Assembly: GCA_963810475.1 (NCBI GenBank)
Contig: CAWENY010000013.1
Location: 76,816 to 140,815 of the forward strand
From: an uncultured beta proteobacterium
Lineage (GTDB): Bacteria > Pseudomonadota > Gammaproteobacteria > Burkholderiales > SG8-39
DNA length: 64,000 nt
Direction: 5' to 3'
Positions 10,197 through 35,632 of the stretch are shown here, piece by piece. The notes under the pieces were generated by a model, which saw only the letters and a program-made list of their open reading frames with translations, had not been told where the DNA came from and searched no databases. Made by a program: the position numbers and the translations under genes. How positions within the stretch are numbered: the stretch's first letter is position 1; each line of letters opens with the position of its first letter.

Positions 10197-12168
10197 GTGT
10201 CGGGCAATGCGGCCGCGGACCAGTTGATTGCCGAGGGCAACCGCGCCGAGAGCGCCGGCGCACTGGCGCAGGCCTGCGAGTTCTATCGCCAGGCGGTGGG
10301 CAGCGCGCCACGCTATGCCAAGGCTCATCTCAACCTCGGCATCGCGCTGGAGGCGCTGGGCGACGACGCCGGCGCCGTCGGCTGCTATGAGAGCGCGCTC
10401 GCGCTCGCCCCCGCCGACCCTTACGCCAGCTATAACCTGGGCAAGCTGCTCTACGCGCGGGCCGAGCTGCCGCGCGCACGGCAGCTGCTCGAGCAGGCGC
10501 TGCGCAGCCGGCCGGACTTCCCCGAAGCGCGCATCGTGCTCGGGTACGCGCTGCAGGCGCAGGGCGAACTAGCGGCGGCAGCCGCGCAGCTGCAAACCGC
10601 CCTGCCGCAGCGGCCCGGGGACTTCGTCGCGCGCGCTGCGCTGTTCCATATCCTCGAGGCGCAAGGCGACTTCGCCGCCGCCGCCGCCCAGCTCGAGACG
10701 GTGCTGCGCGACAAGCCCGACTGGACCGAGGCGCTGTACAACTACGGCCGGACCCTGATGCGCCTGGAGCGCGACGCCGAGGCGGAAACGGCGCTGCGCC
10801 GCGTGCTCGCCCTCGACCCCGGGTTCACCCTTGCCTACCGCATGCTCGGCAACCTGCTGCACCGGCAGGGCCGCGTCAACGAGATACTCGAGCTCTGCGC
10901 CGGCGCGCTCGAGCGCGACCCTGCCCAACTCGAGATCGCGTCCTTCGAGCTCTTCATGCTCAACTTCAGCGACACGATCTCCGCCGAGGCGCTGTTCGAG
11001 CGCCACCGCGCCTTCGGCGAGCGGCTGGAGCGCGCGCGGCCCCCGGCCTTTGCCTTCGCGCGTGCCACCGATGCCGAGCGCCGGCTGCGCATCGGCTACG
11101 TCTCGGGCGACTTGCACTCGCACCCGGTCGCGCTGTTCCTGCAGCCGCTCCTCGAGCGTCACGACCGCGCCGGCTTCGAGATCTGCTGCTATAGCACCAG
11201 CACCCGGGCTGACGACTTCACACGCCATCGTGGCGGCGCACGCCGACCTGTGGCGCGACGCCGCCAGCGCCTCCGAAGCGCAGCTCGCGGAAACGATTCA
11301 TGCCGACCGCGTCGACATCCTGGTCGACCTCTCCGGCCATTCGGGCATCGCGCGGCTCGGCGCATTCGCGCTGCGCCCTGCGCCGGTGCAGGCGGCATGG
11401 CTCGGCTATCTCAATACTACCGGCCTGACGCGCATCGCCTACCGCATCACCGACGCGGTCAGCGACCCGCCCGGGGCCGAGCGGCTGCATACCGAGAAGC
11501 TGCGGCCGCTGCCGCACAGCCAGTGGTGCTACCGGCCCTTCGTGCAGGCCCCGGCGGCCCCCACACCGCCTTGCCTGCGCGACCGGCGCGTCACCTTCGG
11601 TTCGTTCACGCAGATCGCCAAGCTGTCGGCGGCCACCCTCGGGCTGTGGGCGAATATCTTTCGTCAGCTCCCTGACGCGCGCCTCGCGGTGCTGGGCGTG
11701 GCGCCCGGCCAGGCGCGCGATGAGGTGCTGCGCCGCCTCGCCGCCGTCGGCATCGCCGCCAGCCGCGTGACCGTGGCGCCTTTCGTCCCGCTGCGCGAGT
11801 ACTACGAGTGGTTCGCGCGCGTGGACATCGCCCTCGACAGCACCCCCTACAGCGGCGGCACCACGACCTGCGACGCACTGTGGATGGGCGTGCCTGTAGT
11901 CACCCTCGCCGGCTCGCGACCGACCTCGCGCAGCGCCGCCAGCATCCTGACCACGGTCGGGCTCGCCGACTGGATCGCGTCGAGCCCAGACGAGTATGTG
12001 CAGCGTGCCGTTGACGCTTCGAGAAACCCCGCGCTGCTCGCCGAGCTGCGCTCCACGCTACGCTCGAAGATGCAGGCGAGCCCGCTGATGGACGAGGCGC
12101 GCTTCACGAAGGATATGGAGAACCTCTACCGCCAGATGTGGCGCGCGTGGTGCGCGGGTCACGGCTGA
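10197..12168 (+). pseudogene. TPR-repeat / GT41 (O-GlcNAc transferase, SPINDLY-like) protein, one frameshift as assembled
   Basis: The N-terminal TPRs are in ORF 10197..11675. The catalytic part (..ADRVDILVDLSGHSGIARLGAFALRPAPVQAAWLGYLNTTG..TPYSGGTTTCDALWMGVPVVTL..) is in ORF 10831..12168. The junction is near 11219-11223. Length is 3n+1. Confidence 0.75.
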
Positions 12169-14156
12169 TCGTCCGGCAGAGGCTCGACCGAAAACCCGCG
12201 CGGCGGCTCTCCGCGCTGCGACGTTTCCCACATCGCGAGGTACGCAGCTTCTAGGTGACGCCGGAAGCGCTCGAGGTCGAAGAGCGGCGTTGTGGAACGG
12301 TTGCGCTCCAGCCTGGCGCGGATATCGGCGAGCCGGCCTGGGTCTCGCGCGAGCTCGAGCGCGAGCGTCTCATACTCGTGCAAGCTGCGCGTGACGAGCT
12401 CGGGCAGGTCCACGGCGCGCAGCAGGCTGCCAGCGACCCTGCCGGCGAAGGTATTGCCGACGCAGGTCAGCACCGGCAAGCCGGCCCAGAGCGCGTCGCT
12501 CGCGGTCGTGTGGGCGTTATAGGGCAGCGTATCGAGGAACAGGTCCGCCAGGCGATGGCGCGCCAGGTGCTCGGCGGGCGCGACGCGGGCAGCGAACACC
12601 AGCCTTGCCGCATCCACCCCGGCCGCCTGCGCGGCCTGCTGCAAGTGCCGCTTCGCTTCGGCGCTGTCTTCCAGCAGCCACAGCGCGCTTTGCGGAATCT
12701 CGCGCAGCAGCTTCATCCATGCCGCAAACACCGGCGGCATGATCTTGTAGCTGTTGTTGAAGCAGCAGAACACGAACCCGTCTCGCGGCAATCCGGCCCG
12801 CGCTCGGCTCGGCGTCCGCTCGGCGACGCCGCGTGCCGCATCGTTCACCTGATAGCAGTCGGGCAGATACACCACCTGCTCGGTGTAGTGAAGCCGATCT
12901 TCCGCCGGCAGCACGCAGCGGTCGGCGACGATGTAGTCGATGAACGGCGCGGCCATGGTTCCCGGAAAGCCGAGATAGCTCACCTGCACCGGCGCCGGGC
13001 GATACGAGAGGATTTCCGGCCGCGCGCCGGTGGTGTAGCCCTTCAGGTCGATGGCGACGTCGACCTCCATCTCATGCAGCAGGTGCGCGGTTTCCTCGTC
13101 GCCGCGCGACCGCACGTCGACGAATCGATCGAAGGCGCGCATCAGCCGCTGCCGCATCGGGCTGTGATCGTCGGGCCCATAGGAGACGCCGATGACCTCG
13201 AACCTCGAGCGATCGTGCCGCTCAAACAGCCCGGCAGCGAGGTAGGCGGTCGCATGCTCGCTGTAATCGGCCGACAGGTAGGCGAGCCGAACCCGGTCGT
13301 GGCGGTACCGCGATCCTTGCCAAAGAGGCGGGCGCTGCGGCAGCTTCTCGCGCACGTGCCGTTGCGCGCACAGCCGCTGTTCCTCGGGCGAGGGTGACAC
13401 GGCAACGAGAACGAAAGGCTCGGCGGGGATCTCGCCGCGCCGCACCTGGGAGCGCAACGCATCGACGTGCGGCGTCAATCCTTCCCATTTGCAGATCGCG
13501 AGCTCGTTCCAGACCAGGCTGCTCAGCGTATACGCCGCCCGCGGCGCAAGGCGCAGCGCCGCTTCCAGGCTCGTCGCCGCCTGCTCGTGGCGCTTGAGTT
13601 TCTGCAGTAGCATTCCGAGGTTGTGGCGCGCGTCGGCGAGGCCCGGGTTCGCGTCGATGACTTTCTGGAGGTAGGGCAACGCCTCCTCGTTGCGTCCGAG
13701 CTCGCCGAGTACGTTCGCTACGTTGTTGTTCGCCGTGGCGGAGCGCGGATCGAGCCTGGCGGCTTCGAGAAACACCGCCAGGGCATCGTGCGGCCTACCC
13801 TGGTTGATGAGCGCGACGCCCAGCGTGTTGTGCGCGTCGACCAAGTCCGGGTAGGCGGCGATTTCGCGCCGCAGCAGCTGCTCAGCCGACTTGAAGTCGC
13901 CGAGGGCGAGATGGCAGTACCCGAGGCGGTGACCAGCGCCCCTGCGCGGCGCGCGTTGCACCACCTCGCTCAACGGCGCCAGCGCCTCGCCGAACCGGTC
14001 CTGGAAAAGCAGGCTCGATCCGAGCAGGTACAACGATTCGACGTCGCGGGGATCGTCCCGCAGCGCGGCGTGCGCGATTTCCTCCGCCGCATGCAGATCG
14101 TCGCGCTCGATGGCTTGCCAGCCCTCGGCCAGGCGTGGCGGCGGATTCGCTTGCAC
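12159..14156 (-). CDS. TPR-repeat / GT41 (OGT-like) glycosyltransferase, intact
   Basis: 665-aa ORF with a GTG start. TPRs are followed by ..VDVAIDLKGYTTGARPEILSYRPAPVQVSYLGFPGTM..LPYNAHTTASDALWAGLPVLT... It begins 18 nt after the HD-GYP gene stop. Confidence 0.8.
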   Translation of the reverse strand: MQANPPPRLAEGWQAIERDDLHAAEEIAHAALRDDPRDVESLYLLGSSLLFQDRFGEALAPLSEVVQRAPRRGAGHRLGYCHLALGDFKSAEQLLRREIAAYPDLVDAHNTLGVALINQGRPHDALAVFLEAARLDPRSATANNNVANVLGELGRNEEALPYLQKVIDANPGLADARHNLGMLLQKLKRHEQAATSLEAALRLAPRAAYTLSSLVWNELAICKWEGLTPHVDALRSQVRRGEIPAEPFVLVAVSPSPEEQRLCAQRHVREKLPQRPPLWQGSRYRHDRVRLAYLSADYSEHATAYLAAGLFERHDRSRFEVIGVSYGPDDHSPMRQRLMRAFDRFVDVRSRGDEETAHLLHEMEVDVAIDLKGYTTGARPEILSYRPAPVQVSYLGFPGTMAAPFIDYIVADRCVLPAEDRLHYTEQVVYLPDCYQVNDAARGVAERTPSRARAGLPRDGFVFCCFNNSYKIMPPVFAAWMKLLREIPQSALWLLEDSAEAKRHLQQAAQAAGVDAARLVFAARVAPAEHLARHRLADLFLDTLPYNAHTTASDALWAGLPVLTCVGNTFAGRVAGSLLRAVDLPELVTRSLHEYETLALELARDPGRLADIRARLERNRSTTPLFDLERFRRHLEAAYLAMWETSQRGEPPRGFSVEPLPDDQP

Positions 14157-14174
14157 CTGCGGGACGGCGGATGG

Positions 14175-15803
14175 TTAAGGCTGGTAGCCGGGGATGCGCG
14201 CCTCGTCGACCTGGTCGATCTGCTCGGGATCGAGGAACATCTCGGCGTAGCGCCGGTAGACCTTGCGCCGCACGAAGATATCGAACAGGTCCGGGTCGAC
14301 GTGGTTGTTCAGGCGCATGCGGCCGAGGATCTCGAGCGATTCGGACAGCGTCTTACCCTTCTTGTAGGGCCGGTCCTTGGCGGTGAGCGCCTCGAAGATG
14401 TCGGCGATGCCCATGCAGCGGGCCTGCACCGACATCTGTTCGCGCTTCAGGCCCTTCGGGTAGCCCTTGCCGTCCATGCGCTCGTGGTGGCCGCCGGCGT
14501 ACTCGGGCACCTTGGTCAGGTGCTTGGGCCAGGGTAAAGCCTCGAGCATCTTGATGGTGGCGACGATGTGGTGGTTGATCACCTTGCGCTCCTCGTCGGT
14601 GAGGGTGCCGGCGCGGATGGTGAGGTTCGTCACCTCGTCTTCGCTCAGGAAGTTGGCCTCGTGCCCGGCCATGTCGCGCCAGCGGTAGGCGGCTATGCGC
14701 TTCACGCGCGCCACGTCCTCGTCGCGCATGCGCTCGCTGCCGATGTTGCAGGCGTGCAGGAAGCGGCGGTCGTCGTCCAGCGCGCGCAGGCGGTTTCGCA
14801 GCTGCTGCGGATCCAGGTTTCCCCGCAGGCTTTCCAGTTCGAGGTCCCGTTTCAGGATCTCGAAGCGCGTGTCGATCAGGTGGATGCGGTCGTAGATGGT
14901 CTCGAGCTTGGTCGCCTTGTCGACGACGTGAACCGGGGTGGTGACCTTGCCGCAATCGTGCAGCAGGCCGGCGATCTTCAGCTCGTAGCGGTCCTTCTCA
15001 CTCATGTGGAAGTCGGCGAGCGGGCCCTCGCGCGTATCGTTTACCGCCTCCGCCAGCATCATGGTGAGCTGCGGCACGCGCTGGCAGTGGCCACCGGTGT
15101 AGGGCGACTTCTCGTCGATCGCCGAGTTGATCAGGTTGATGAACGACTCGAACAGCTGTTCGAGCTGGTTGATCAGCATGCGGTTGGTGAGCGCGATCGC
15201 CGCCTGCGAGGCGAGCGACTCGGCCAGGCGCTGGTCGGAGTCCGAGAAGGCGGCGATCTCGCCGGTCTTCGGGTCGCGCGCATTGATCAGCTGCAGCACG
15301 CCGATCGCCTCGTGCTCGTGGTCGCGCATCGGCACGGTGAGGAATGATTTGGAGCGGTAGCCGGTCTTCGAGTCGAACGCGCGCGTGCCCGAGAAGTCGA
15401 AGCCGTCGGCGGTGTAGGCGTCAGCGATGTTCACGGTCTTGCCGGTGAGGGCGGCGTGCGCCGCGACCATGCTGTGATTCGGCTTGCCGTCCTTGTAGAG
15501 CTGGATCGGGTAGAACGGCACCGGGTTGCCGCTGGTGCCGCCGAGGTAATACTTGAGCGAGGTGGTGCGCACGATCTCGAAGCGCAGCGTCTTGTCCTCG
15601 GCCAGGCGGTACAGGGTGCCGCCGTCGGCGCCGGTAATGGTCTTGGCCGCGGCGAGGATCGACTCGAGCAGGCGGTTGATGTCGCGCTCGGCGGAGAGGG
15701 AGGCGCCGATCGCATTCAATTGCTCCAGCCGCAGCCCGAGATCGTCCGGGGCGGCCAGCGCGCCGAGGCGCAGGTGCCCGGCGCTCGTATCGTAGACGTT
15801 CAC
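14175..15803 (-). CDS. GAF domain / HD-GYP domain phosphohydrolase (putative c-di-GMP phosphodiesterase)
   Basis: N-terminal GAF-like region, then LLHDCGKV ... GGHHERMDGKGYPKGL. About 157 residues separate HD and HHE, which is an unusually long insert. The GTG start at 15801..15803 overlaps the upstream stop as GTGA. Confidence 0.8.
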   Translation of the reverse strand: MNVYDTSAGHLRLGALAAPDDLGLRLEQLNAIGASLSAERDINRLLESILAAAKTITGADGGTLYRLAEDKTLRFEIVRTTSLKYYLGGTSGNPVPFYPIQLYKDGKPNHSMVAAHAALTGKTVNIADAYTADGFDFSGTRAFDSKTGYRSKSFLTVPMRDHEHEAIGVLQLINARDPKTGEIAAFSDSDQRLAESLASQAAIALTNRMLINQLEQLFESFINLINSAIDEKSPYTGGHCQRVPQLTMMLAEAVNDTREGPLADFHMSEKDRYELKIAGLLHDCGKVTTPVHVVDKATKLETIYDRIHLIDTRFEILKRDLELESLRGNLDPQQLRNRLRALDDDRRFLHACNIGSERMRDEDVARVKRIAAYRWRDMAGHEANFLSEDEVTNLTIRAGTLTDEERKVINHHIVATIKMLEALPWPKHLTKVPEYAGGHHERMDGKGYPKGLKREQMSVQARCMGIADIFEALTAKDRPYKKGKTLSESLEILGRMRLNNHVDPDLFDIFVRRKVYRRYAEMFLDPEQIDQVDEARIPGYQP

Positions 15804-18178
15804 TTCACGCAAACGGCGCGCACCTCTTTCATGTGGGTCACCCCCATCAGGCATTTCTCCATGCCGTCCTGCTTGAGGGTCCGCATGCCTTCTTCCAGGC
15901 AAATCGCGAGCACCTCAGCCACGCGCGCGTGCTCCTGGATCGCCTTCTTCAGCCGGTCGCTCGCGATCAGCAGCTCGTGCAGGCCGCAGCGCCCCTTGAA
16001 GCCCGAGCCGCCGCACTTGTCGCAGCCGACGGTCCGGTAGAAGGTGAGCTGGCCCTTGTCGTTCCCATAGGCCTTGATCCAGTCCTTGTAGACCGCCTCC
16101 ATGGCGCCCTTGGGGTCGGCCTTGAAGCGGGAGGTCGCCATCAGCTCGTCGCAGTACTCGCGCAGGAACGCGGTGAGCTCGGCGCCGTCAGGCGCGTAGG
16201 GCTGCTTGCAGCTGCACATGCGCTTCGCCAGGCGCTGGGCCAGGATGCCGAGCAGCGCGTCGGAAAAGTTGAATGGGTCCATCCCCATGTCGAGCAGGCG
16301 GGTGATGGATTCCGGCGCCGAGTTGGTGTGCAGGGTGGCGAACACCAGGTGGCCGGTGAGCGAGGCTTCGATGCCGGTGCCGGTGGTCTCCTTGTCGCGC
16401 ATCTCGCCGACCATGATGATGTCCGGGTCGGCGCGCAGGAACGCCCTCATGATGACGGCGAAGTCGAGGCCCGCCTTCTTGTTCACCTGCACCTGGCGCA
16501 AGCCCTTCTGCGTAATCTCGACCGGGTCCTCGGCGGTCCAGATCTTGGTGTCGGGCGTGTTCAGAAACTTGAGCACCGAATGCAACGTGGTGGTCTTGCC
16601 CGAGCCGGTCGGACCGCAGACGAAGAACAGGCCATAGGGCTTGGATACCGTGGCCTTCACCTGCGCCAGGTTCTTCTCGGTGAAGCCCATCTTCTCGAGC
16701 GGGATCGGCTCGCCGGCGGCGAGAATCCGCATCACGATGTCCTCGACGCCGCCCGCGGTCGGGATGGTGGCGACGCGCAGCTCGATGTCGAGCGGGCCGA
16801 ATTTCTTGAACTTGATCTTGCCGTCCTGGGGCTTTCTCTTTTCCGAAATGTCCAGGTCGCACATGATCTTCAGGCGCGCGACGATCGCCGCCCGGTAGCT
16901 CGCCGGGATCTCGATGTAGGGCCCGAGCGAGCCGTCCTTGCGGAAGCGGATCTCGGTCTTCGCCTTGCCGGGATAGGGCTCGATGTGGATGTCCGAGGCG
17001 CCCTGGTTGTAGGCGTCGACGATCACCTTGTTCACCAGCTTCACCAGCTCGTTGTCCGCGGCCGCCGACACCTCGTCGGTCGAGATCTCGAGCGCTTCGC
17101 CCGAATCGTCGCCCATGGCGCCGAGCAGGTCCTCGACGTTGCCCAGGTCGCCGCCCGCCGGACCCGTCTCCGCGCCGTAGAACTGGTTGACCGTCTCCTT
17201 GAAATCCTTCCGCGTCGCGACCTTGTAAAGGATGCGGGCCTTCGGGAACACGTTCGAGGCGATGCGCGAGGAGCGGATGCGCTCCGGGTCCAGGCAGAGC
17301 ACGACCAGGCCATCCTTGCCTTCGTCGATCGGAATCCACTGATTGGACTCGACGTACTCGCGCTTAAGGTTCTTCAGCAGCTCCGCCGGCTTGATGCGGT
17401 CGCTTTTGAATGCCTCGTACGGCACGCCGAAGAACTTGGACAGCGCGGCGCCGATCGCCGGGATCTTGACCTGGAACTCGTCGATCAGCACCTGCTCGAT
17501 GTCGATCGCCTTCTTGCGCGCCTGGCGCGCGGCGAGCTCGAACTCGCCTGCGGAAAGCACCGCATCGGCGATCAGGTAGTCGTACTTGGTCTTCGCGACC
17601 TGCGGCTTCTGGCGCTGCTTGAAGGCGATGGCAAGGGTCTGCGACAGCTCCCCGACGCCTTCTTCGGCGAGCGCGCCGAACGGAATACCGGCCTTGTTGT
17701 TGATGATCTGGATCACGCCGATGAGCTCGTTGGAGCCGGCTTCCAGGATCGGCGCCACCAGCATCTGCTTGGTGCGATAGCCGGTGCGCTTGTCGACTTC
17801 CTGCAGGAAACGCAGGTTGCCGTTCAGCGCGCGCAGCTCGTTCTCGTCGTAGACGTCCTTGATGTTGGCGGTCTTCTTGGCGAGCGCGACGTAGCCGGCG
17901 ATCGAATGCTCGGCGATCGGCAGCTTGAGGTCCTTGAACGAATTGAGGCCGGTCTTGACCTTGGAGACGATCGACTGCCGGTCCTCGCCCATGGAGTAGA
18001 TCGTGAGCCGGTCGGCGTTGAACAGCGCGCAGACATCCGCGCTTACCTCCAACATGATTTCGTCGATGTTGTTGGTGGCGTGGATCTTGTTGGTGACCGC
18101 CTGCAGCTGCTTCTGGAACGCGAGGCGCGCGCCAACATCGGTCTGCGCCGGCGACTGCTGGCTCAGGACAGCACTCAT
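15800..18178 (-). CDS. GAF - T2SSE_N - GspE/PilB-family secretion ATPase
   Basis: Intact 792-aa ORF. It has an N-terminal GAF-like domain (residues about 30-185) and Walker A GPTGSGKTTTLH. It also has Asp/His boxes and the tetracysteine CDKCGGSGFKGRCGLHE. Confidence 0.9.
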   Translation of the reverse strand: MSAVLSQQSPAQTDVGARLAFQKQLQAVTNKIHATNNIDEIMLEVSADVCALFNADRLTIYSMGEDRQSIVSKVKTGLNSFKDLKLPIAEHSIAGYVALAKKTANIKDVYDENELRALNGNLRFLQEVDKRTGYRTKQMLVAPILEAGSNELIGVIQIINNKAGIPFGALAEEGVGELSQTLAIAFKQRQKPQVAKTKYDYLIADAVLSAGEFELAARQARKKAIDIEQVLIDEFQVKIPAIGAALSKFFGVPYEAFKSDRIKPAELLKNLKREYVESNQWIPIDEGKDGLVVLCLDPERIRSSRIASNVFPKARILYKVATRKDFKETVNQFYGAETGPAGGDLGNVEDLLGAMGDDSGEALEISTDEVSAAADNELVKLVNKVIVDAYNQGASDIHIEPYPGKAKTEIRFRKDGSLGPYIEIPASYRAAIVARLKIMCDLDISEKRKPQDGKIKFKKFGPLDIELRVATIPTAGGVEDIVMRILAAGEPIPLEKMGFTEKNLAQVKATVSKPYGLFFVCGPTGSGKTTTLHSVLKFLNTPDTKIWTAEDPVEITQKGLRQVQVNKKAGLDFAVIMRAFLRADPDIIMVGEMRDKETTGTGIEASLTGHLVFATLHTNSAPESITRLLDMGMDPFNFSDALLGILAQRLAKRMCSCKQPYAPDGAELTAFLREYCDELMATSRFKADPKGAMEAVYKDWIKAYGNDKGQLTFYRTVGCDKCGGSGFKGRCGLHELLIASDRLKKAIQEHARVAEVLAICLEEGMRTLKQDGMEKCLMGVTHMKEVRAVCVK

Positions 18179-18245
18179 CTCCCAACCCTCCCTGCTTTAC
18201 TGCTTATGACTAGACTTCACATGTTAAGCCTAGGCACCCTGATTT

Positions 18246-19314
18246 TCAACGAATTTCCGGTCTCTCCACAGCTTTTAACCCGCCCTCCAGCAACCGCACT
18301 TTGAAGCCGCGCTGCGCGAACAGAAAAGCCGCCGCCGCGCTGCGCCGGCCGCTCTGGCAGTAGGCAATGTAATCCTTACTACGGTCGAGCACCGCGAACA
18401 TGTTCCTCACTTCGGCGAGCGGCACGTTGATGGCGCCGGGAAGCTTGTCGTACTGGTACTCCGAGGGATAGCGCACGTCGAGCCACAGCGCGCCGCGGCG
18501 CACTTGCTCGGCGGCGTCGCCATAGTCGAGGCGCCGCAGCAGCGGCTCGCGCAGCATCTCGTTGAAGTTGCTGCGATTGAGGCGCAGCAAGTAGCCGCCG
18601 ACGAGCGCGGTGACGCTCGCGTTGCGCTTCGCTTCCGACACCAGTGCTTCCTCGCCGAATGCGTCGCCGCTCTTCAGCTCGGCGAGCACCACTTCCGCGC
18701 CGCCCACCATGCGCCCGACCTGGAAGCGCCCGGACTCGATCACGTAATAGAAGTCGCCTTCGTCGCCTTCGCGGATCACGGTTTCACCGCGCGCAACGTT
18801 TACCCGCTCGAAGCGCCGCAGCAGCTCGTCGATACGGGCCGCCGGGAGCTGGGCAAAGATGCCGGCGCGCAGGCTGCCGAGCGAGAACGGGCCGTTCGAG
18901 CGCAGCGGATCGCCGCGCAGGCGCGCGATGGTCCCTTCCGGATCGGCCGCGGCCACCTGGTCCCAGGTGGCGAGAACGTCGAGCAGGTCGTCGTCGATGA
19001 CCAGCAGCTCGACGTCGGTGATCGCCTTGGCGCGCGCCAGCTTTTCCTTGCGCCGGTTGAGCGCCTGCCGCGTCTCTTCGCTACCGCCCACGACCACCAG
19101 CGTGCCGCCGCCCTGCAAGCTCAGCAGCACCTCGCCGGCGAGGAGGAACACCGAGTGTCCGCCGTGCAGGCGGCCGGCGAGCGGGTCGCTGCCGCGCGGC
19201 GCACGCTCGGTCTGCGAAACCTCAGACAGCTCGGCGAGGCGCTCGGCCGACAACCCGGCCAGGGGCGCGAGCGCGGCGAGCTGGGTGGGCGTGGTTTTCA
19301 GAATTCCAGGACAA
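18246..19314 (-). CDS. tandem cyclic-nucleotide-binding domains + C-terminal rhodanese domain protein (start uncertain)
   Basis: cNMP motif GDFYYVIESG..GDAFGEEAL..RNASV. The rhodanese part is ..WLDVRYPSEYQYDKLPGAINVP..YCQSGRRS... There is no ATG/GTG in frame near the 5' end. I propose TTG 19312..19314 plus a 1-nt insertion in T4 19295..19298 (length 3n+1). Confidence 0.6.
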
Positions 19315-20065
19315 GGTTGTTTTGCAGCATGCGCGGCCGAAAGCTGCCTGCGCACTCCTCGATCTCGAGCATGGTGGGCTCGATCTCGCCGGGCTTGAGG
19401 TGAGTGATGTAGATCTCGGCGTTGCGCTCGAGCTTGGCGAGCTCGTCGGCCAAAGTCTGCGGGCACAGGTGGCGCGAGATCTCGGCCAGCTGGCGCTCCT
19501 TGTTGGAAAAAGCGGTCTCGATGATGAGGAACTTGAGGTTGGCGATGCGGTTGACCACGCGCCACAAGGCGTCGTTCGGGCCGGTGTCGCCGGTGAACAC
19601 CAGGCTCGCGGCGCCGCTGTCGAGGTGATAGCCGACCGCCGGGACGGTGTGCCGCGCCGGCAGCGGCGTGATCTTGCGCCCGCCGAGCGTGGTCGTGTGT
19701 CCGAGCTCGATCTCCTGGTAGCGCAGGAACGGGGCCTCGGGGGTCGGGATCTCGGTGAAGTCCGGCCAGATCGCCCAGTTGAAGAGGTGGTTCTTCAGAA
19801 TCTCGATGGTGGCGCGGGTCGAGTACACCGTGAGCGGCTTGCTGCGCATGCCGCCGACGGTATCGACCAGGAACGGGATCGAGGTGACGTGGTCCAGATG
19901 CGAATGCGTGACGAAAATGTGGTCGATCTGCGACAGCTCCGCCAACGTCAGGTCGCCGACGCCGGTGCCGGCGTCGATCAGGATGTCGCTGTCGAGGAGG
20001 AACGAGGTGGTGCGCAGGTGGCGCCCGCCGATCCCGCCCGAGCATCCGAGCACGCGCAAACGCAT
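19298..20065 (-). CDS. class II 3',5'-cyclic-nucleotide phosphodiesterase (metallo-beta-lactamase fold)
   Basis: MRLRVLGCSGGIGG..LIDAGTG..IFVTHSHLDHV.. (HxHLDH), 255 aa. It sits inside the 989-aa track ORF but has its own ATG at 20063..20065. Confidence 0.8.
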   Translation of the reverse strand: MRLRVLGCSGGIGGRHLRTTSFLLDSDILIDAGTGVGDLTLAELSQIDHIFVTHSHLDHVTSIPFLVDTVGGMRSKPLTVYSTRATIEILKNHLFNWAIWPDFTEIPTPEAPFLRYQEIELGHTTTLGGRKITPLPARHTVPAVGYHLDSGAASLVFTGDTGPNDALWRVVNRIANLKFLIIETAFSNKERQLAEISRHLCPQTLADELAKLERNAEIYITHLKPGEIEPTMLEIEECAGSFRPRMLQNNLVLEF

Positions 20066-20082
20066 GGCGGTGTGGCGTTTTC

Positions 20083-22267
20083 CTATTTTTCGTCGAACAC
20101 GGTGACGCCGTCCCAGTCGGACGGCGGCGGGTTGCGACGCTTTTCCTGGATTCTCTGCATGATAGACGCCGTACAGACCACAGGCCGGGTTCACGGCGAG
20201 CAGGCGCCCCAAGCTCATGCTGGCGGCATCCCAGTCGCGCGCGCGATAGGCATGCAGGGCGAGTTGCCATTCCCGCAGCTCCGCATCCCCGGTCACCGCT
20301 TCCAGAGGCTCGTAGATGTTGATGGCCTCGTCTTTTCCTTTGACCTTGACCCGGTCGATTTCCCTGAATACCACATCTTGGACCTGGCTGCGCGTGGCCT
20401 CCCCGACCAGGATGCCGACGCCGTAGGCTTTTGTCCGCCCCTCCAGCCGCGAGGCGACGTTTACCGCATCCCCCATCGCAGTATAGGCGCGCCGCACTCG
20501 CGAGCCCATGTCGCCGACGCGGACTGTGCCGGAATTCACACCAATGCCGATCTTCAGCGCCGGCCAGCCGCGCGCGGCGAAGCGCGCGTTGAGCGATGCG
20601 CACTCGCGCTGCATCGCGAGCGCCGCCAGCAACGCGCTGCGCGCGTGCTCTGGGTTCTCCACCGGCGCCCCCCAGAACGCCATGATCGCGTCGCCGATGT
20701 ACTTGTCGAGCGTGCCGCGGTAGCGGTCGCGGATGATGCTGCTCATCTCGGTCAGGTATTCGTTGATGTACTCGCGCAGCGCATCCGGCGCGAGCGCCTC
20801 GGAGATGCTGGTGAAACCGCGGATGTCCGAGAACAGGATCGTCAGCTCCGCGCTTTTCGGCTTGTCGTACTTGTCCGGATCGAGCTCCATGCGCTCGACC
20901 ACTTCCGGTGGGACGTACTCGCGAAAGCGACCGGCGAGCCGCCGCTTGGAGCGCGACTCGACGAAGTAGCCGTAGGCCATGTTGAGCACGTAGATCGCGG
21001 CCGCGATCAGCACCGAGGCCGCGAGCGGCAGCACCAGCCCGCCCTGCCACACCATGAAGTTGAACGCGGCGATCGCGACGATGCCGAGCACCGTGGCGAG
21101 CGTCGCCCACAACGCCGACAGGCGCGGAATGAGGATGGCGAACGCGATGCCGCCGATCAGCAGCAGCACCACCTCGGCGCCGACCACGTACAGCGGCCGC
21201 TGCTTGACCTCGCCGTCGAGGATGCCCGCGATCATGTTGGCGTGGACTTCCACCCCGGGATAGGTGTCCGCGATCGGCGTCGGGCGCATGTCCTGAAGCG
21301 TCGGCGCGGTGCTGCCGATGATGGCGATCTTCCCCTGCAGCGCTTCGCGGGCGACGCGGTCGGCCGCCACATCGGCCAGTGAGATGTAGCGGAATGCGCC
21401 GCGCGCACGGTAGGGCACCAGCGCGCCGGCTTCCGCGTCCACCGGGATCTGCAGGCCGCCGACTCTCAGCCACTCGAGGTTGGGGTCGTCGGGCGGAAAG
21501 CCCGGCTCAACCGGCGGCGGCGCCGCGCCGGTCTGGCGCGCGAGCAGCGCGCGCACCACGGCAAGCGACAATGCTTCGTAGTACTCGCCGCCGTACTCGA
21601 CGATCAGCGGCACGCGGCGCAGTACGCCGTCGAAGTCCACGCGCGGATTGATGTGCCCGGCGGCGGTGGCGCTTTCGAGGTACAGCGGCAGATTGCCGGT
21701 GTAGCCGAAGATCTCCGGGAAGAACACGCGCCGGCCGTCGAACGTGCCCTTCGGCAGCACCGGACGGGGGAGCGCGTTTGCCTTGACCGCGCGCTCCTCG
21801 AAGTTGAAGTAGTAGCCGAGCACGACCGGCCTGTCCTTCATGCTCGCGGCAAAGCGGCGGTCGAAATCCAGACCAGGGCGCAGCTTGGCGTAAGCGGATC
21901 GAAACGCGGGAACGTCACGAGCGATCCGGTCCAGCACCTCGATGCCCGAGCTCGAGTCGCGCTCGGCCCAGACCACGTCGAAGCCGAGCACGGCGACGCC
22001 GTAGCGCTCGAACAGCTTGTCGACCAGCTCGGCCATCAGCCGCCGGTTCCATGGCCAGCGGCCGAGCTCGCCCAGGCTCTTCTCGTCGATGTCCAGGATG
22101 ACCAGGCGCGGGTCCACACTGCGCGGCATCGACATGCGAAGCCGCGTGTCGTAGATGATGTGGTCGAGCTGGGAAACCAGGCGCAGCTTGCCGTCGGCGG
22201 TGGGAAACCACTCCGCGGCGTGGGCTACGAAGAACAGCGTGATCGCGAGGCCGAGCGCGACCCTCAA
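20083..22267 (-). pseudogene. CHASE2 sensor / class III adenylate-guanylate cyclase, frameshifted 27 codons before its stop
   Basis: CHASE2-like periplasmic region, 3 TM helices, then the cyclase core ILFSDIRGFTSISE..GDAIMAFWGAP..IGIGVNSGTVRVGDMG. The C-terminal ..IMQRIQEKRRNPPPSDWDGVTVFDEK* (TAG 20083..20085) is in another frame. The junction is near 20160-20166. Length is 3n+1. Confidence 0.8.
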
Positions 22268-23156
22268 CTATGCCTTGAGAAAAAACTCCATCTTGACGCC
22301 GGCCAACTCGATCACGTCGTGGTCCTTGAGGGAGTGCGGCGCGGCGCCGATCGCCTGGCCGTTGACCGTCGGGCGATTGGCGCCCTCGACGTGGGTAATG
22401 AAGTAGCCGGCCGGGCGCCGGGTGAGGACAGCAACCTGCACACCAGGCTTGCCGAGCGTGGTCAGGGGCTTGGTGAGCTCGAGCTCCTTGCCGGCATTGG
22501 CGCCCGAAAGCAGCTGGATCGCGCCCAGCGGCTGGCCTGGCTTGCCCGCCGGCGCTGTGGCGGCGGCAGCGGCCGGAGGCGCAGGCGCCTTCGCCGGCGC
22601 TGCAGCGGACGCGGCAGCGGGCGCAGGCGCTGCTGCCGGGGTGGAACTGACCGGCTTGGTGATCGCATCCTTGTCGGCGATGCCGGCGGCCGTGGCGGTT
22701 GCGCCCACCTGCTGCACCGCGGCCGCGCGCTGCGCGACGGCGGCCTGCGCGCCGCCCGGCGGGGAACCGGGCGCCGCCTTTGCCTGCTCTGTCGGCCGCC
22801 TTCATCTGCGAGGGCCGCAGCACCATGGTCTTCTCGAAATCGGCCTTCTCGCCCGAGGCGGTCGGCGCGGCGTCGCCGACGAACTTCAGCTTGTATTTGC
22901 CGAGCTCGACGACATCGTTGTTCTGCAGGAAATGCTTCTTGACCGGGTTGCCGTTGACCACCGTGCCGTTGGTGCTGCCGAGGTCTTCGAGGAACGAGTC
23001 GTTGAGAATCGTGACGATCACTGCGTGCTCGCCGCTCACCGCGAGGTTGTCGATCTGGATGTCGTTGTGCGGCTTGCGGCCGATGGTGGTGCGCTCCTTC
23101 GTCAAGGGAATCTCCTTGAGCACCAGGCCATCCATGCTGAGTATCAGTTTCGCCAT
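22268..23156 (-). pseudogene. double FHA-domain protein, one frameshift in the Ala/Pro-rich linker as assembled
   Basis: FHA 1: TIGRKPHNDIQIDNLAVSGEHA..STNGTVVNG. FHA 2 (ORF 22268..22717): LTTLGKPGVQVAVL..YFITHVEG.NRPTVNGQ. The junction is around 22750-22800. Length is 3n+1. Confidence 0.75.
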
Positions 23157-23172
23157 AGCGGGTCCGCGGGAG

Positions 23173-24000
23173 TTATTTTAGCCAGCCGAAAACCTTGCCC
23201 ATGACGCCGCGGCGGCCGGGGTACTCCCGTAGGACGCGGACCAGTATAACCGAAACGTTATCGCGCCCCCCGTTGTCGTTGGCCATCTGCACCAGGTGCT
23301 GGGCGGCGAGCTTGAGGTTGCCCTTGCCGAGGGTCTGCAGCGTCATGGCGATGTCTTCGTCTTCCACCATGTCGCACAGACCGTCGGAGCACAGCAGAAA
23401 GATGTCGCCCGACTTCGTCGGGTACTCGTGAATCTCGGGCTCGACCGTCGGATCGATGCCGAGCGCCTTGGTCACGAGGTTCTTGTGCTGCGCCTTCTTC
23501 GCCTGCTCCGGGGTGATGATGCCGGAATCGATCTGCTCCTGCAGCAGCGAATGGTCGCGCGTCACCTGGCTGAACTCGCCGTCGCGCAGCCGGTAGAGGC
23601 GCGAGTCGCCGAGGTGCGCGACCAGCAGGCGATTGTCGTAGAACAGGCAGACGACGAGCGTGGTGCCCATTCCGGCGTACTGCGCCTGGCTTTGCGCCGC
23701 CTGGTAGATCGAGCTGTTGGCCTTCAGCACCTGGTCGCGCACCAGGCGCGCGGCAATTTCCTCGCTCGACCCGCTGTGGACGTCGTAGGGCTTGGTGTTG
23801 GCGAGGATCTGGCGCATCTCGGTGACGATGACCGTGGTCGCCATGCCGCTCGCCACCTCGCCGGCGTTGTATCCGCCCATGCCATCGGCGAGCACCACCA
23901 GCCCGTTCGCGGCATCGGCCGCGATCGAATCCTCGTTGTGCGAGCGCACCATGCCCGGATCGGTGCAGGTGGCAATCTCGAGGTTCTGGCTGAGGTCCAT
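23173..24000 (-). CDS. PP2C-family Ser/Thr protein phosphatase
   Basis: MDLSQNLEIATCTDPGMVRSHNEDS..VLADGMGG..LLCSDGL..DNVSVILV. Start taken at ATG 23998..24000. Confidence 0.85.
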   Translation of the reverse strand: MDLSQNLEIATCTDPGMVRSHNEDSIAADAANGLVVLADGMGGYNAGEVASGMATTVIVTEMRQILANTKPYDVHSGSSEEIAARLVRDQVLKANSSIYQAAQSQAQYAGMGTTLVVCLFYDNRLLVAHLGDSRLYRLRDGEFSQVTRDHSLLQEQIDSGIITPEQAKKAQHKNLVTKALGIDPTVEPEIHEYPTKSGDIFLLCSDGLCDMVEDEDIAMTLQTLGKGNLKLAAQHLVQMANDNGGRDNVSVILVRVLREYPGRRGVMGKVFGWLK

Positions 24001-24072: not shown

Positions 24073-24124
24073 ATTGTTGCAGCCTTATGCGAGAAGAGTC
24101 AACGATTTAGCTGACTCAGTCCAC

Positions 24125-25057
24125 TCAGGTTCCGAGGATGGCGCCCGCCTTGATCGCGCCCGCGGCGAGCAATTCAACGGCCGCGAGCTTCTTTCCGTCG
24201 CCGAGCTTCGCGCGCAGTACTTCGATGCGCCCGCCCTGCGCGCTGACCTGGAAGGACTTGTCCGTCACTTCAACCACTTCGCCGATCTTTCCCTTGACCG
24301 CGCCGAAAGTGCGCACCGGATGCTTGCGCGCGTCGAAGATCTGCAGCTCGCTGCCGCCGAGGGTAGTCCACGCACCCGGCGCCGGGTTGCAGCCGCGGAT
24401 CGTGTTGTAGATGAAGTCGACGTGGTTCGCCCAGTTGACCTTCGCCTCGGCCTTGCGGCACCAGCCCTCGTAGGTGGCCTGCGACTCGTCCTGCACCACT
24501 TCATGATGCTTGTTCTTGATCACGAGATCTGCCGCTTCGAGCATCGCCTGCACCCCCATCGGGAACAGGCGGTCGAAGTACACCGTGCCGAGCGTGTCGT
24601 CGGCACTGATCGGCGTTTCCTTCTGCAGCACCACCGGGCCTTCGTCGAGGCCGTCGGTCGGGCGAAAGATGGTGAGGCCGGTCTTGGCGTCGCCGCGGAT
24701 GATCGGCCAGTTGATCGACGACGGCCCGCGATACTTCGGCAGCAGCGACGGGTGGTACTGGATCGTGCCGCGCTTCGGGATGTTGACGAAATCCTGCGGC
24801 GCGAACTGCAGCACGAACGCCATGATGCCCAGCTCGACGTTGAGTTTCTTCAGGGCTTGCTTGGCCTGGTCGCTTTTCAGAGAGGCGAATTGAAACACCG
24901 GCACGCCCTTTTCCTGCGCCGCGACCTTCAGCGCGTCCGGTCTCGCGCCCGTCTTTTCCGGCGCGCAGAACACGCCAGCGACCTCGTCCTTGCGCGCGAG
25001 GAACGCTTCGAGCACCGCTTTGCCGAAATCCTGCTGGCCGATGATGGCAATCTTCAT
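24125..25057 (-). CDS. formyltransferase-family protein resembling the N-terminal (hydrolase) domain of 10-formyl-THF dehydrogenase
   Basis: MKIAIIGQQDFGKAV..IQYHPSLLPKYRGPSSINWPII.GD..TG.TIF..DGLDEGPV. Fmt-like N- and C-terminal domains, 310 aa. Confidence 0.7.
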   Translation of the reverse strand: MKIAIIGQQDFGKAVLEAFLARKDEVAGVFCAPEKTGARPDALKVAAQEKGVPVFQFASLKSDQAKQALKKLNVELGIMAFVLQFAPQDFVNIPKRGTIQYHPSLLPKYRGPSSINWPIIRGDAKTGLTIFRPTDGLDEGPVVLQKETPISADDTLGTVYFDRLFPMGVQAMLEAADLVIKNKHHEVVQDESQATYEGWCRKAEAKVNWANHVDFIYNTIRGCNPAPGAWTTLGGSELQIFDARKHPVRTFGAVKGKIGEVVEVTDKSFQVSAQGGRIEVLRAKLGDGKKLAAVELLAAGAIKAGAILGT

Positions 25058-25079: not shown

Positions 25080-26351
25080 TCAGGCTGCCTTCTTAGGCGG
25101 CGCGCTCAGGGCGCCTGCGCTTTTCAGCGAGTTGATCTTGCTCTGATCGTAGTTCAGCACTTCACGCAGAATTTCCTCGGTGTGCTCGCCGAGCGTCGGC
25201 GAGCGCTCGATCTTCGCCGGCGAGTCCGACAGCTTGATCGGCATGCCGACGTTCCACCACTTGCCGCGCTGCGGATGGTCGAGCTCGACCCACATGTCGC
25301 GGCCGCGCACGTGCTCGTCGGTGGCCAGGTCCTGCGTGCTCATGATCGGGCCGCACGGCACGTCGAGCGGATTGAGGATCGCCATCAGCTCGCGCTTGGT
25401 GTACTTCTCGGCGAACTTGTTGATCAGCGTCCACATCAGGTTCTGGTTCTTCCGGCGGTCCGAAATCTTCGCGAACCGGGCGTCGCTTGCCATTTCGGGC
25501 ATGCCGACGTCGGGGCCGATGCGCTTGGCGAGGTCTTCCCACACCGCTTCCTGCACCACGACGTAGAGCCAGTCGTTGGGGCCATGCGGCTTGCAGTGGA
25601 TCGCGTTGCCGAGCTGGCCGCCGCCGGAATCGTTGCCGGCGCGCGGCACGTCCCCCATGCCCTTGTAGGTCGGCACCGAAAACTCCGACAGGTCGCCGCG
25701 CGTCAGGCGCTGGTGATCGCGGAACTTGACGCGGCACAGGTTCATCACGCCGTCCATCATCGCGACTTCGACGTATTGGCCTTTTCCGGTGTTTTCGGCT
25801 TGCCGCAAGGCCGCCAGCAGACCGATGGCCAGGTGCAGCCCGGTGCCGCTGTCGCCGATCTGCGCGCCGGTGACGAAAGGCGGACCGTCCGGTACGCCGG
25901 TGGTGCTCATCGCGCCGCCCATCGCCTGCGCCACGTTCTCGTAGGCCTTGAACTCGGCGTACGGCCCGCTCGAGCCGAAGCCCTTGATCGAGCCCATCAC
26001 GATCTTCGGGTTCAGCTCGCGGATCTTCTCCCAGGGGAAGCCGAAGCGGTCGAGCACCCCGGGGCCGAAGTTCTCCATGATGATGTGGCACTTCTTCAGC
26101 AGGTCGACGAACACCTGCTTGCCCTCGTTGGTCTTCATGTTCACGGTGATCGAGCGCTTGTTGCAGTTGAGCATCGTGAAGTAGAGCGAGTCGGCGTTCG
26201 GCACGTCGCGCAGCTGGCCGCGCGTCGCGTCGCCTTGCGGGTTCTCGAACTTGATCACGTCCGCGCCCATCCAGGCGAGCAATTGACTGCAGGTGGGTCC
26301 CGCCTGCACATGGGTCATGTCCAGGATGCGGACGCCTTTGAGTGCTTCCAT
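25080..26351 (-). CDS. frc: formyl-CoA:oxalate CoA-transferase
   Basis: [36 protein letters not shown]...[12 protein letters not shown].. (family III CoA-transferase, Frc-like), 423 aa. ATG at 26349..26351. This is the 3' third of the 1009-aa track ORF. Confidence 0.9.
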
Positions 26352-26365
26352 TTTCCCTCCGGAGA

Positions 26366-32730: not shown

Positions 32731-32744
32731 TTGACCACGATCAA
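32731..32744. promoter_or_regulatory. Crp/Fnr-type box TTGAC-CACG-ATCAA upstream of tctC
   Basis: 9 of 10 palindromic positions match. It lies 93-106 nt upstream of the tctC ATG and overlaps the stop of the terC-family gene. Confidence 0.45.
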
Positions 32745-33502: not shown

Positions 33503-33511
33503 CGACTTATT

Positions 33512-35182: not shown

Positions 35183-35215
35183 TCCTGGTCTCCCCTGATG
35201 GTGAATCGACCCGAC

Positions 35216-35632
35216 CTACTTGACGAGCAGGACGGGTACGTCCGAGATGTGCAGCACCTTGGTGGCGGTGGAGCCCATCAGCGCTTTGCCGAGCTCGCTC
35301 ATGCCGCGGGTGCCGATGTAGATGAGGTCGCAGCGCTTGTCCTTGGCGTGCTTGACCAGCGTCTCGGCCACCGGGCCGACCAGCGCGCTCGCCTTGTACG
35401 GGATGCCGGCGCGGTCGAGCTCCCTTTTCGCCGCGGCCAGCATGCCTTCGCCTTCCTCCTGGTAATAGCGCTCGAGCTGCGCCTTGTTCAAGCGCCCGAC
35501 CTTCGGCACCGGCAGGTGCACCGCGACCACCTCGACCGACGGAGGAACGCGATACCAGTCGCAATGCTGGACCAGCAGCTGCACCGCCTTGAGCGACGGC
35601 TTGGAGCCGTCCACCGCTACCAGTATTTTCAT
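35216..35632 (-). CDS. universal stress protein (UspA family)
   Basis: MKILVAVDGS..LIYIGTRGMSELGKALMGSTATKVLHISDVPVLLVK. Its ATG overlaps the fdsA stop as ATGA (35629..35632). Confidence 0.85.
   Translation of the reverse strand: MKILVAVDGSKPSLKAVQLLVQHCDWYRVPPSVEVVAVHLPVPKVGRLNKAQLERYYQEEGEGMLAAAKRELDRAGIPYKASALVGPVAETLVKHAKDKRCDLIYIGTRGMSELGKALMGSTATKVLHISDVPVLLVK

Follow-up and report, generated by a model that had tools for sequence, protein, structure and literature searches.

A minus-strand string of signalling genes and a PilB-like ATPase

We analysed a stretch of 64,000 nucleotides with about 67% G+C (hereafter the window), from contig CAWENY010000013.1 of an uncultured beta proteobacterium, in which gene calls were backed by third-position GC (GC3) frame analysis. 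Eight consecutive genes, whose coding status is backed by the same analysis, run along its minus strand from 12159 to 24000. Their predicted products deal with cyclic nucleotide monophosphates (cNMP), cyclic di-GMP (c-di-GMP) and phosphothreonine (phospho-Thr), and one of them is an ATPase of the PilB/GspE type that carries an N-terminal GAF domain. A type IVa pilin gene, pilA, lies further downstream on the same strand. The genes are listed below with their coordinates in the window and the profile matches on which the assignments rest.

23173..24000, minus strand: PP2C Ser/Thr phosphatase of the Stp1/IreP type (Pfam PP2C_2, E=3.5e-18; NCBIfam NF033484)
22268..23156, minus strand: FHA - Ala/Pro linker - FHA-like protein (Pfam FHA, E=9e-19, N-terminal part)
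20083..22267, minus strand: CHASE2 - transmembrane - class III adenylyl cyclase of the Lys/Thr type (Pfam CHASE2, E=5e-55; Guanylate_cyc, E=1e-22)
19298..20065, minus strand: class-II-like cyclic-nucleotide phosphodiesterase of the metallo-beta-lactamase (MBL) fold (Pfam Lactamase_B_2, E=1e-19; PDEase_II)
18246..19301 (start uncertain), minus strand: cNMP-binding protein with a C-terminal rhodanese domain (Pfam cNMP_binding, E=3e-21; Rhodanese, E=5e-15)
15800..18178, minus strand: GAF + PilB/GspE N1 + N2/C-terminal ATPase, 792 aa (Pfam T2SSE, E=1.5e-111; MshEN; GAF)
14175..15803, minus strand: predicted GAF + HD-GYP c-di-GMP phosphodiesterase (Pfam HD_5, E=5e-43; GAF, E=7.5e-15; HD)
12159..14156, minus strand: TPR + GT41 glycosyltransferase, outside the conserved cassette (Pfam Glyco_transf_41, E=6e-87)
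9174..9644, minus strand: pilA, type IVa major prepilin with a C-terminal Cys...Cys loop (NCBIfam prepilin N-terminal domain and pilin matches)

An earlier reading of the sequence alone (the original prediction) had described eight same-strand genes with tiny gaps or overlaps, and this was confirmed. The HD-GYP and ATPase genes overlap in a GTGA start/stop (15800-15803), the TAG stop codon of the FHA gene (22270-22268) abuts the TTG start codon of the cyclase gene (22267-22265), and the gaps between PP2C and FHA, cyclase and phosphodiesterase, and HD-GYP and GT41 measure 16, 17 and 18 nt, respectively, but 67 nt precede the ATPase gene. Pfam searches with each product recovered the domains that had been listed gene by gene, except for a second cNMP-binding domain and a second canonical FHA domain, neither of which was detected. 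A search of the 64-kb window revealed no Ser/Thr kinase, as had been noted before, and no second ATPase of the PilB/PilT/GspE type. The single prepilin motif in the window is that of pilA, the one pilus gene noted before; the other large open reading frames (ORFs) of the window were annotated as metabolic or transport genes, no profile search having been aimed at PilC or secretin.

The gene order is conserved among Betaproteobacteria

A genome scan with one genome per species gave 80 loci, the best of 567 confirmed stretches, in which the N-terminal region of the ATPase is 65-93% identical. All of them belong to Betaproteobacteria (metagenome-assembled genomes (MAGs) of Burkholderiales, Rhodocyclaceae, Gallionellaceae, Nitrosomonadales, Sulfurisoma, Sulfuritalea, Pelomicrobium and Ca. 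Desulfobacillus), a limit that is due to the 4-sequence alignment used as seed; distant N-terminal regions, aligned as a set of 19 sequences, proved too diverse for this purpose. Gene order was counted in the 57 loci, one per species, that span PP2C to HD-GYP. The order PP2C, FHA, cyclase, phosphodiesterase, cNMP-binding/rhodanese protein, ATPase, HD-GYP is kept in almost all of them: PP2C, FHA, ATPase and HD-GYP are each present in 57/57 loci and the phosphodiesterase in 55/57, and the cNMP-binding/rhodanese gene is absent from about 14/57. The gene sets are distributed as follows.

35/57 loci: full set (kinase, PP2C, FHA, cyclase, phosphodiesterase, cNMP-binding/rhodanese protein, ATPase, HD-GYP)
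9/57 loci: all but the cNMP-binding/rhodanese gene
6/57 loci: without both CHASE2 proteins (kinase and cyclase)
3/57 loci: without the kinase, cyclase kept (as in the window)
Remaining four of the 57 loci: three with too little upstream sequence for the kinase, one without the phosphodiesterase and cNMP-binding genes

As indicated in this list, most relatives have a gene that the window does not. A Ser/Thr kinase-domain match is found upstream of PP2C in 48/57 loci with enough upstream sequence, and in all but a few of these 48 the kinase gene ends at most a few hundred nucleotides from the PP2C start; in Ca. Desulfobacillus, for example, an 887-aa CHASE2-Ser/Thr kinase is encoded directly upstream of PP2C. 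The phospho-Thr reader and eraser without a kinase, proposed originally as the composition of the system, is thus not that of most relatives, where a CHASE2-kinase completes the set. Six loci (L045, L057, L059, L062, L063 and L079) have neither kinase nor cyclase, but PP2C, FHA, phosphodiesterase, ATPase and HD-GYP are all present in them. The two CHASE2 membrane sensors seem, from these gene contents, to be gained or lost together.

The eighth gene of the string behaves differently, since TPR-GT41 has either no match in the relatives or matches of 25-39% identity at varying positions. The co-conserved string is therefore one of seven collinear genes, and not of eight as first put forward. Its recurrence in dozens of species is far more than chance would produce. 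The consensus order is CHASE2-kinase, PP2C, FHA/FHA-like protein, CHASE2 cyclase, MBL phosphodiesterase, cNMP-binding/rhodanese protein, GAF-ATPase and GAF-HD-GYP, followed in most loci by pilA, either directly or within a few kb. Compared with this order, the cassette of the window is a derived form that has lost the kinase and gained GT41 genes ahead of pilA, and the sequence as read puts frameshifts into two of its genes.

A PilB-like ATPase with an additional GAF domain

The ATPase has the features of the PilB/GspE/PilT superfamily, namely the T2SSE domain (PF00437), Walker A, the Asp and His boxes and the tetracysteine zinc motif. Across 74 sequences of the family these read GPTGSGKT, DPD[IV]IMVGEMRD, GHLV[FL]ATLHTN, CxC and CxxC, the bracketed positions alone being variable. 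Its best NCBIfam family is the PilB equivalog TIGR02538 with 473 bits, below the cut-off of 675.65, and the GspE equivalog TIGR02533 reaches 433.2 bits, below the cut-off of 630.25; no NCBIfam model reaches the cut-off at which it would claim the protein. Among solved structures, M. xanthus PilB, Thermus PilF and Geobacter PilB are the best relatives, with EpsE/GspE ranking behind. Both the profile and the structure ranking place the ATPase nearer to PilB than to GspE. As its PilB score is sub-threshold, we prefer to regard it as a probable extra PilB paralogue rather than as the lineage's only PilB.

The protein extends about 195 residues beyond canonical PilB at its N-terminus, and this extension carries the GAF domain. 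The Pfam MshEN profile covers only the later part of N1 (residues 250-338). The c-di-GMP motif of MshEN consists of two tandem 24-residue repeats, RLGxx(L/V/I)(L/V/I)xxG(L/V/I)(L/V/I)xxxxLxxxLxxQ (Wang et al., PMC5013675), for which a relaxed version, [RKPN]hGxxhhxx[GAS]hhxxxxhxxxhxx[QNKRYWST], has also been given (PMC5013675). None of the 74 family members matched even the relaxed motif, and the aligned stretch reads KYDYLIADAVLSAGEFELAARQAR. With the motif absent, the MshE-like gating by c-di-GMP through the N-domain to which the ATPase had been likened does not apply to it.

More than 120 database clusters of the ATPase at a minimum of 89% identity all combine GAF, MshEN and T2SSE. Look-ups of the exact sequences of the window ATPase and of P0001, which is nearly identical to it, retrieved no recorded contig. 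When 1.84 billion cluster representatives were searched with the N-terminal 372 residues, 268 representatives were retrieved at E <= 1e-30, some of them full-length proteins with 30-50% identity and some carrying two GAF domains. Given the number and spread of these matches, the GAF-N1-ATPase architecture is, as judged by homology, a widespread family that has no name. One remote GAF-GspE relative, from a deltaproteobacterial MAG, lies among unrelated genes and is a true orphan, so that its context is uninformative on function. Another relative, P0122 (locus L083, 685-2277), is a 530-aa protein made of two GAF domains and a PilB-like N1 with no ATPase domain, and the neighbouring gene is that of a methyl-accepting chemotaxis protein. 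This protein may represent the sensor module on its own; its context, too, was uninformative on function.

Cyclase and GAF residues point to cAMP

The catalytic domain of the cyclase has P. aeruginosa CyaB (3r5g) as its best solved match (E=1.4e-33) and contains the class III adenylyl cyclase sequences ILFSDIRGFT, GTLDKYIGDA and YTAMGDAVNVASR, with both metal-binding Asp residues, the adenine-specifying Lys and Thr and the transition-state Asn and Arg. The residues that specify the substrate are Lys (GTLDKYIGD) and Thr (YT(A/V)MG), as in CyaC and CyaB, whereas Glu and Gly occupy these positions of the guanylyl cyclase Cya2 in the same alignment. The motif GT[LIV]DKY[IMV]GD was found in 59 loci and the stricter R..YT[AV]MG..VN.ASR in 37.

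Among solved structures, the GAF domain of the ATPase matches Anabaena CyaB2 (1ykd) with E=2e-26, and also PDE10A, PDE2A and PDE5. In CyaB2 cyclic AMP (cAMP) is contacted by Arg291 (adenine N1), Thr293 (N6/N7), Ile308 and Asp356 (PMC4411481). The equivalents of Arg291, Thr293 and Asp356, which are R57, T59 and D129 in the ATPase, are invariant in 74/74 members, and that of Ile308 is V74 in the window and V, L or I in 74/74. An AlphaFold model of residues 1-340 (mean predicted local distance difference test (pLDDT) score of 83.7; residues 13-337 confident) was used alone, as the full-length model (mean pLDDT 58.5) was poor in the ATPase half because the alignment is shallow there. Structural matches of residues 13-337 are dominated by cNMP-type GAF domains: the nearest include the GAF of PmGH, which is the top match, CyaB2, PDE5, PDE2, PDE6, PDE10A and the GAF-cAMP complex of Lcd1 (5w10). 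By alignment with CyaB2, the GAF pocket that the original prediction wanted checked keeps cAMP-contacting residues. As for the NKFDE signature, N, K, F and E are kept and the Asp is changed to Ala, Thr or Val in the present clade, F-x3-D-E being retained further out in the family. Mutation of this Asp impairs cGMP binding in phosphodiesterase GAF domains (PMC11977230), and the isolated GAF-B of CyaB2 binds both cAMP and cGMP (PMC4411481).

The HD-GYP protein contains LHDCGK and HHERMDGKGYP, which are found in 66 loci, and its best solved matches are PmGH (4mcw, E=8e-32) and PDE5 GAF-A (E=2e-13). Its own GAF, read from the sequence, has a Gly in place of CyaB2 Arg291. For Tlr0485, a protein of GAF-HD-GYP architecture, activity that depends on the binding of cAMP to the GAF has been reported (bioRxiv 10.1101/2021.11.05.467447). 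The HD-GYP domain of the window protein also contains an insertion of about 80-90 aa (residues ~309-388) between HD (237-308) and HD_5/GYP (389-506), similar to the one described in the GAF-associated HD-GYP of Leptospira LIC_11189 (PMC12943098).

The messenger had been left as cAMP or cGMP. A cyclic nucleotide is upheld, and because the cyclase carries the Lys/Thr pair and the adenine-contacting GAF residues (R57 and T59, equivalent to CyaB2 Arg291 and Thr293) are kept, cAMP is most likely the messenger of the cassette and cGMP is disfavoured.

The remaining proteins of the cassette

The PP2C protein scores 252 bits against NCBIfam NF033484 (Stp1 family), above the cut-off of 230. In the protein encoded next to it, first described as a double-FHA protein, the N-terminal FHA is canonical: it has the phospho-Thr-binding loops (Gly-Arg, Ser-x-x-His and Asn-Gly; IGRKPHNDIQIDNLAVSGEHA...STNGT), and GR...SxxH is conserved in 57 loci. 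The C-terminal domain is FHA-like and degenerate, being devoid of GR/SxxH and of a Pfam FHA match; it weakly matches Yop-YscD_cpl (E=0.0014).

The phosphodiesterase matches Pfam PDEase_II (PF02112) with 49.6 bits for a threshold of 23.7, over part of the profile only, and the yeast PDE1 structure (4ojv) with E=7e-7. It does not belong to the narrower family NF041851 of NCBIfam (44 bits, far below the cut-off of 400). Its H-x-H-x-D-H motif (THSHLDH in the window) is conserved in 72 loci. The orthologue in locus L001 also matches the Apyc1 family.

In the cNMP-binding/rhodanese protein, to which two cNMP-binding domains had been attributed, a single one was detectable (residues 165-249), with the cNMP-binding domains of PKA and PKG as best solved matches; the N-terminal 142 aa gave no Pfam match at E <= 0.1. 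The phosphate-binding cassette FGEEAL...RNA[ST]V and the rhodanese Cys loop YCQ[ST]GRRS are conserved. Altogether, the enzymes of the cassette look active, their catalytic motifs being invariant or conserved.

A pilin gene lies downstream of the cassette in most loci

A prepilin gene was found at most 6 kb downstream of HD-GYP in 46/62 loci (74%), in several families and mostly on the same strand; in 20 loci it starts no more than 600 nt from HD-GYP on the same strand. In the window pilA is 4.5 kb downstream of HD-GYP, also on the same strand, with two GT41 genes, one of them convergent, in between. PilC, PilD, secretin and PilMNOP(Q) are encoded in none of the relatives' loci, where the conserved neighbours of the ATPase are the signalling genes and pilA only. 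The ATPase is thus never part of a complete type II secretion system (T2SS) or type IV pilus (T4P) locus in the relatives, which agrees with the original prediction. The description of the ATPase as an orphan does not stand, since the cassette mostly has the major type IVa pilin gene beside it and the protein is nearer to PilB than to GspE.

A candidate three-messenger module controlling a pilus motor

With moderate confidence, we favour the view that the cassette is a cAMP- and phospho-Thr-gated module for a PilB-like pilus motor, with built-in crosstalk from cAMP to c-di-GMP. In this model we infer which ligand is bound, in which sense regulation works, what the phospho-Thr target is and that the ATPase acts on type IV pili. 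The periplasmic CHASE2 domain of the cyclase would sense an envelope or external cue and set the cAMP level, which the phosphodiesterase would reset. Binding of cAMP to the N-terminal GAF of the hexameric PilB-like ATPase would alter how active the motor is or how it docks to the pilus platform, and so gate pilus extension. The same cAMP pool, acting on the GAF of the HD-GYP protein, would alter c-di-GMP hydrolysis, and the cNMP-binding/rhodanese protein would be a further cAMP reader. In parallel, a second gate, comparable to PpkA/PppA/Fha1 of type VI secretion, would be formed by the kinase that writes phospho-Thr, the FHA protein that reads it and the PP2C that erases it. Two CHASE2 membrane sensors would thus serve as inputs, one making cAMP and the other writing phospho-Thr. 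More tentatively, the direct cAMP switch of a dedicated PilB-like motor, the phospho-Thr gate and the cAMP-driven hydrolysis of c-di-GMP could together amount to a three-messenger pilus checkpoint, which has not been described for any secretion-type ATPase. The cyclic-nucleotide-gated ATPase module with FHA/PP2C input that had been suggested at the outset therefore survives in its core (seven collinear genes, GAF contacts kept, no complete T2SS/T4P locus around the ATPase), without GT41, the analogy with MshE and the orphan status.

Several observations weigh against this model. The kinase is absent from the window, where two cassette genes are frameshifted as read, and six loci have neither cyclase nor kinase although the other cassette genes are there. 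As a single bacterial class supplies all loci, the collinearity is partly inherited. The ATPase remains under the PilB equivalog cut-off, the NKFDE Asp is replaced in its clade, and the HD-GYP GAF has a Gly at the position of CyaB2 Arg291. No locus carries PilC, PilD or PilMNOPQ; 16/62 loci have no pilin within reach, and the window pilA is set apart by the two GT41 genes. Part of the linkage to pilA could also stem from a common insertion site, between sucCD/TerC and pilA, and not from function.

Other explanations were weighed against the same data. The ATPase might be the orthologous PilB of the lineage, that is, its sole type IVa pilus (T4aP) extension ATPase with a gained GAF, in which case the cassette would be the main on/off control of type IVa pili. 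The full PilB-like layout of N1, N2 and C-terminal ATPase behind the GAF, the very high conservation (89% identity or more over 120 clusters), the adjacency of pilA and the lack of a second PilB-type gene in the 64-kb window all fit this explanation. We consider it unlikely, however, since the PilB score is only slightly over that for GspE, as expected of a separate clade, no locus has pilC or pilD, the genes usually found after pilB, and three PilB paralogues have been reported in Ramlibacter, a related member of the order (PMC3164672). It is rather improbable that the ATPase powers a process other than T4aP (a T2SS-like or unknown export or assembly) or is a regulatory NTPase, with pilA nearby by accident. 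Such a role would agree with scores below both the PilB and the GspE cut-offs, with the absence of platform, secretin and minor pilins from every locus, with the truly orphan state of the distant deltaproteobacterial relative and with the 16/62 loci that have no pilin nearby; it is at odds with the pilin gene found downstream in 74% of the loci, in several families and mostly on the same strand, and with PilB/PilF outranking GspE in both profile and solved-structure searches.

The ligand, rather than the motor, is questioned if the GAF domains bind cGMP or another molecule or only dimerise, cAMP then signalling through the cNMP-binding/rhodanese protein alone with no direct gating of the ATPase. 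The loss of the NKFDE Asp, which matters in phosphodiesterase GAFs (PMC11977230), would be explained in this way, as would the six loci that keep the GAF proteins without a local cyclase; moreover, CyaB2 GAF-B on its own accepts both nucleotides, and the GAF of PmGH, the top structural match, has no known ligand. Against this, the Arg291 and Thr293 equivalents that contact adenine are invariant (74/74), the cyclase is of the adenylyl type and the phosphodiesterase is kept in 55/57 loci, and we judge such an arrangement to be doubtful. Lastly, we looked at a Pycsar-type anti-phage cyclic-nucleotide defence, given that the cyclase matches PycC models (best 95 bits), the cNMP-binding domain weakly matches Pycsar effector models (PADLOC) and the L001 phosphodiesterase orthologue matches Apyc1. 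These PADLOC matches reflect generic homology of class III cyclases and cNMP-binding domains; the cyclase has the adenine-specifying Lys/Thr pair, there is no TIR or pore-forming effector, and the site between sucCD/TerC and pilA is a fixed chromosomal one across families, unlike that of mobile defence islands. The defence reading was accordingly rejected as highly improbable.

Comparison with known systems

Second-messenger control of T4P and T2SS motors is so far known in the form of c-di-GMP acting on MshEN, of FimX/PilZ-type adaptors and of cAMP acting via transcription factors. MshE and PA14_29490-type ATPases share with the present protein a hexameric PilB/GspE-family ATPase with an N-terminal module for a nucleotide second messenger; here, in contrast, a GAF domain stands ahead of N1, the 24-residue c-di-GMP motif is missing (0/74) and the predicted ligand is cAMP. 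The canonical type IVa PilB of M. xanthus and Geobacter and Thermus PilF are the best profile and structure matches and have the same N1/N2/C-terminal layout, the same catalytic boxes and an adjoining type IVa pilin gene; they differ in that our ATPase has ~195 extra N-terminal residues with the GAF, a sub-cut-off score and a signalling cassette instead of pilC/pilD after it. The GAF resembles, in sequence and structure, the cAMP GAFs of CyaB2 (with contacts kept), human PDE10A GAF-B, the Leptospira GAF-GGDEF protein Lcd1 and Thermosynechococcus Tlr0485, and the GAF-HD-GYP of the cassette has the architecture of Tlr0485 and PmGH. Unlike in those proteins, the output is here a secretion-type ATPase, for which no report was found, and the NKFDE Asp is replaced.

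In P. aeruginosa, cAMP made by CyaB is tied to type IV pilus output. Both systems have a membrane-bound class III adenylyl cyclase, CyaB being the closest solved one (3r5g), but the P. aeruginosa pathway uses Vfr as receptor and a MASE2 domain, whereas here the predicted receptors are the motor ATPase and the HD-GYP protein, and the sensor is CHASE2. The threonine-phosphorylation pathway of the type VI secretion system (T6SS) consists of the PpkA kinase, the PP2C PppA and Fha1. As in our cassette, Ser/Thr kinase, PP2C and FHA are encoded beside the machine that is gated (PMC5995506); the differences are that the machine is here a PilB-like ATPase, that the kinase bears CHASE2 and is missing in the window, and that there is a second, degenerate FHA-like domain.

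Full-text literature searches found no description of a GAF + PilB/GspE/T2SSE architecture and none of a CHASE2 + FHA + PP2C + cyclase + pilus cassette, and in the literature searched no member has been studied experimentally. This agrees with the initial remark, in which no characterised system of this composition was known. Each component is of a known kind; the combination, the adjacency of pilA and the breadth of conservation are new. If the model is correct, a widespread PilB-like ATPase with a built-in cAMP-type GAF, encoded together with a cyclase, a phosphodiesterase and a Thr-phosphorylation switch of its own, would provide a direct cAMP input to pilus or secretion motors, and the cassette would be a small natural case of crosstalk from cAMP to c-di-GMP. 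The carriers are Betaproteobacteria of environmental importance, namely iron oxidisers, denitrifiers and soil and groundwater Burkholderiales, in which pili affect attachment, biofilms and DNA uptake.

Frameshifts and start codons in the window

The FHA gene is spread over two frames as read, with an apparent 1-nt insertion near 22787-22796, where 'MKAADRAG' in the window corresponds to 'MKAAAEQA' in the relatives; the two halves share one frame in 63/64 relatives. The last ~25 codons of the cyclase gene (ending in PPPSDWDGVTVFDEK, also given as NPPPSDWDGVTVFDEK, and a stop codon) are out of frame with the cyclase body, the shift being located near 20148-20158; as read, cyclase and phosphodiesterase are read as one 989-aa ORF (19298-22267). 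The cyclase C-terminus is in frame in 66/66 relatives. The oxalyl-CoA decarboxylase gene oxc (25080-28109) also looks frameshifted, and the plus-strand GT41 gene (10197-12168) consists of two overlapping ORFs in different frames. Since at least four genes of the window look frameshifted and the relatives are in frame at both the FHA and the cyclase site, assembly indels appear more likely than pseudogenes. The sole relative among 64 with FHA halves in different frames is L001 (4896-5824), an independent metagenome contig with a 90% identical ATPase. The FHA shift falls in a GC-rich Ala/Pro linker; assembly may go wrong there repeatedly, or this sub-lineage may truly have the shift.

No ATG, GTG or TTG is found where the cNMP-binding/rhodanese gene should begin; an in-frame CTG that overlaps the phosphodiesterase stop codon (CTGA, 19298-19301) is the only candidate. 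The same is found in the closest relative, L002; more distant relatives have an ATG about 10 nt past the phosphodiesterase stop.

Genomic flanks and neighbouring genes

Upstream of the cassette, the flank in Rhodocyclaceae and Gallionellaceae consists of sucCD/TerC/Usp, the other flanks being metabolic. The window keeps sucC (56658-58103), sucD (about 55783-56784) and TerC (32741-33511), and about 30 kb of formate/oxalate metabolism genes lie between sucCD/TerC and PP2C, at the position of the relatives' kinase. Upstream of PP2C and around pilA the following further features were recorded.

35629-40097: formate dehydrogenase (upstream flank)
33512-35215: formate-tetrahydrofolate ligase (upstream flank)
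Upstream flank: Tct transporter genes, oxc and frc
24125-25057: formyltransferase (upstream flank)
24073..24102, minus strand: promoter-like site in the 124-nt gap upstream of PP2C (9/12 consensus with extended TG; weak evidence)
10197..12168, plus strand: second TPR + GT41 gene, convergent, frameshifted as read (TPR in 10197-11000; GT41 in 10831-12168, E=1.4e-43)

Promoter and terminator scans gave a number of sites not above the shuffled expectation, and an Rfam scan of the whole window found no riboswitch or other RNA family.

The pilA gene is ringed by genes of the glycosylation type (284-9158 and 10197-14156), with the two TPR-GT41 genes upstream and genes for GT2, GT2-GtrA, a DUF2079 membrane protein and a methyltransferase downstream. 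Several relatives likewise have GT41-like genes beside pilA (L010, L026, L027, L072 and L081 among others). Because of this recurrence, a role of GT41 with the pilin is more plausible than one in the signalling string, and the neighbourhood hints that the pilin may be glycosylated by an O-GlcNAc-transferase-like enzyme.

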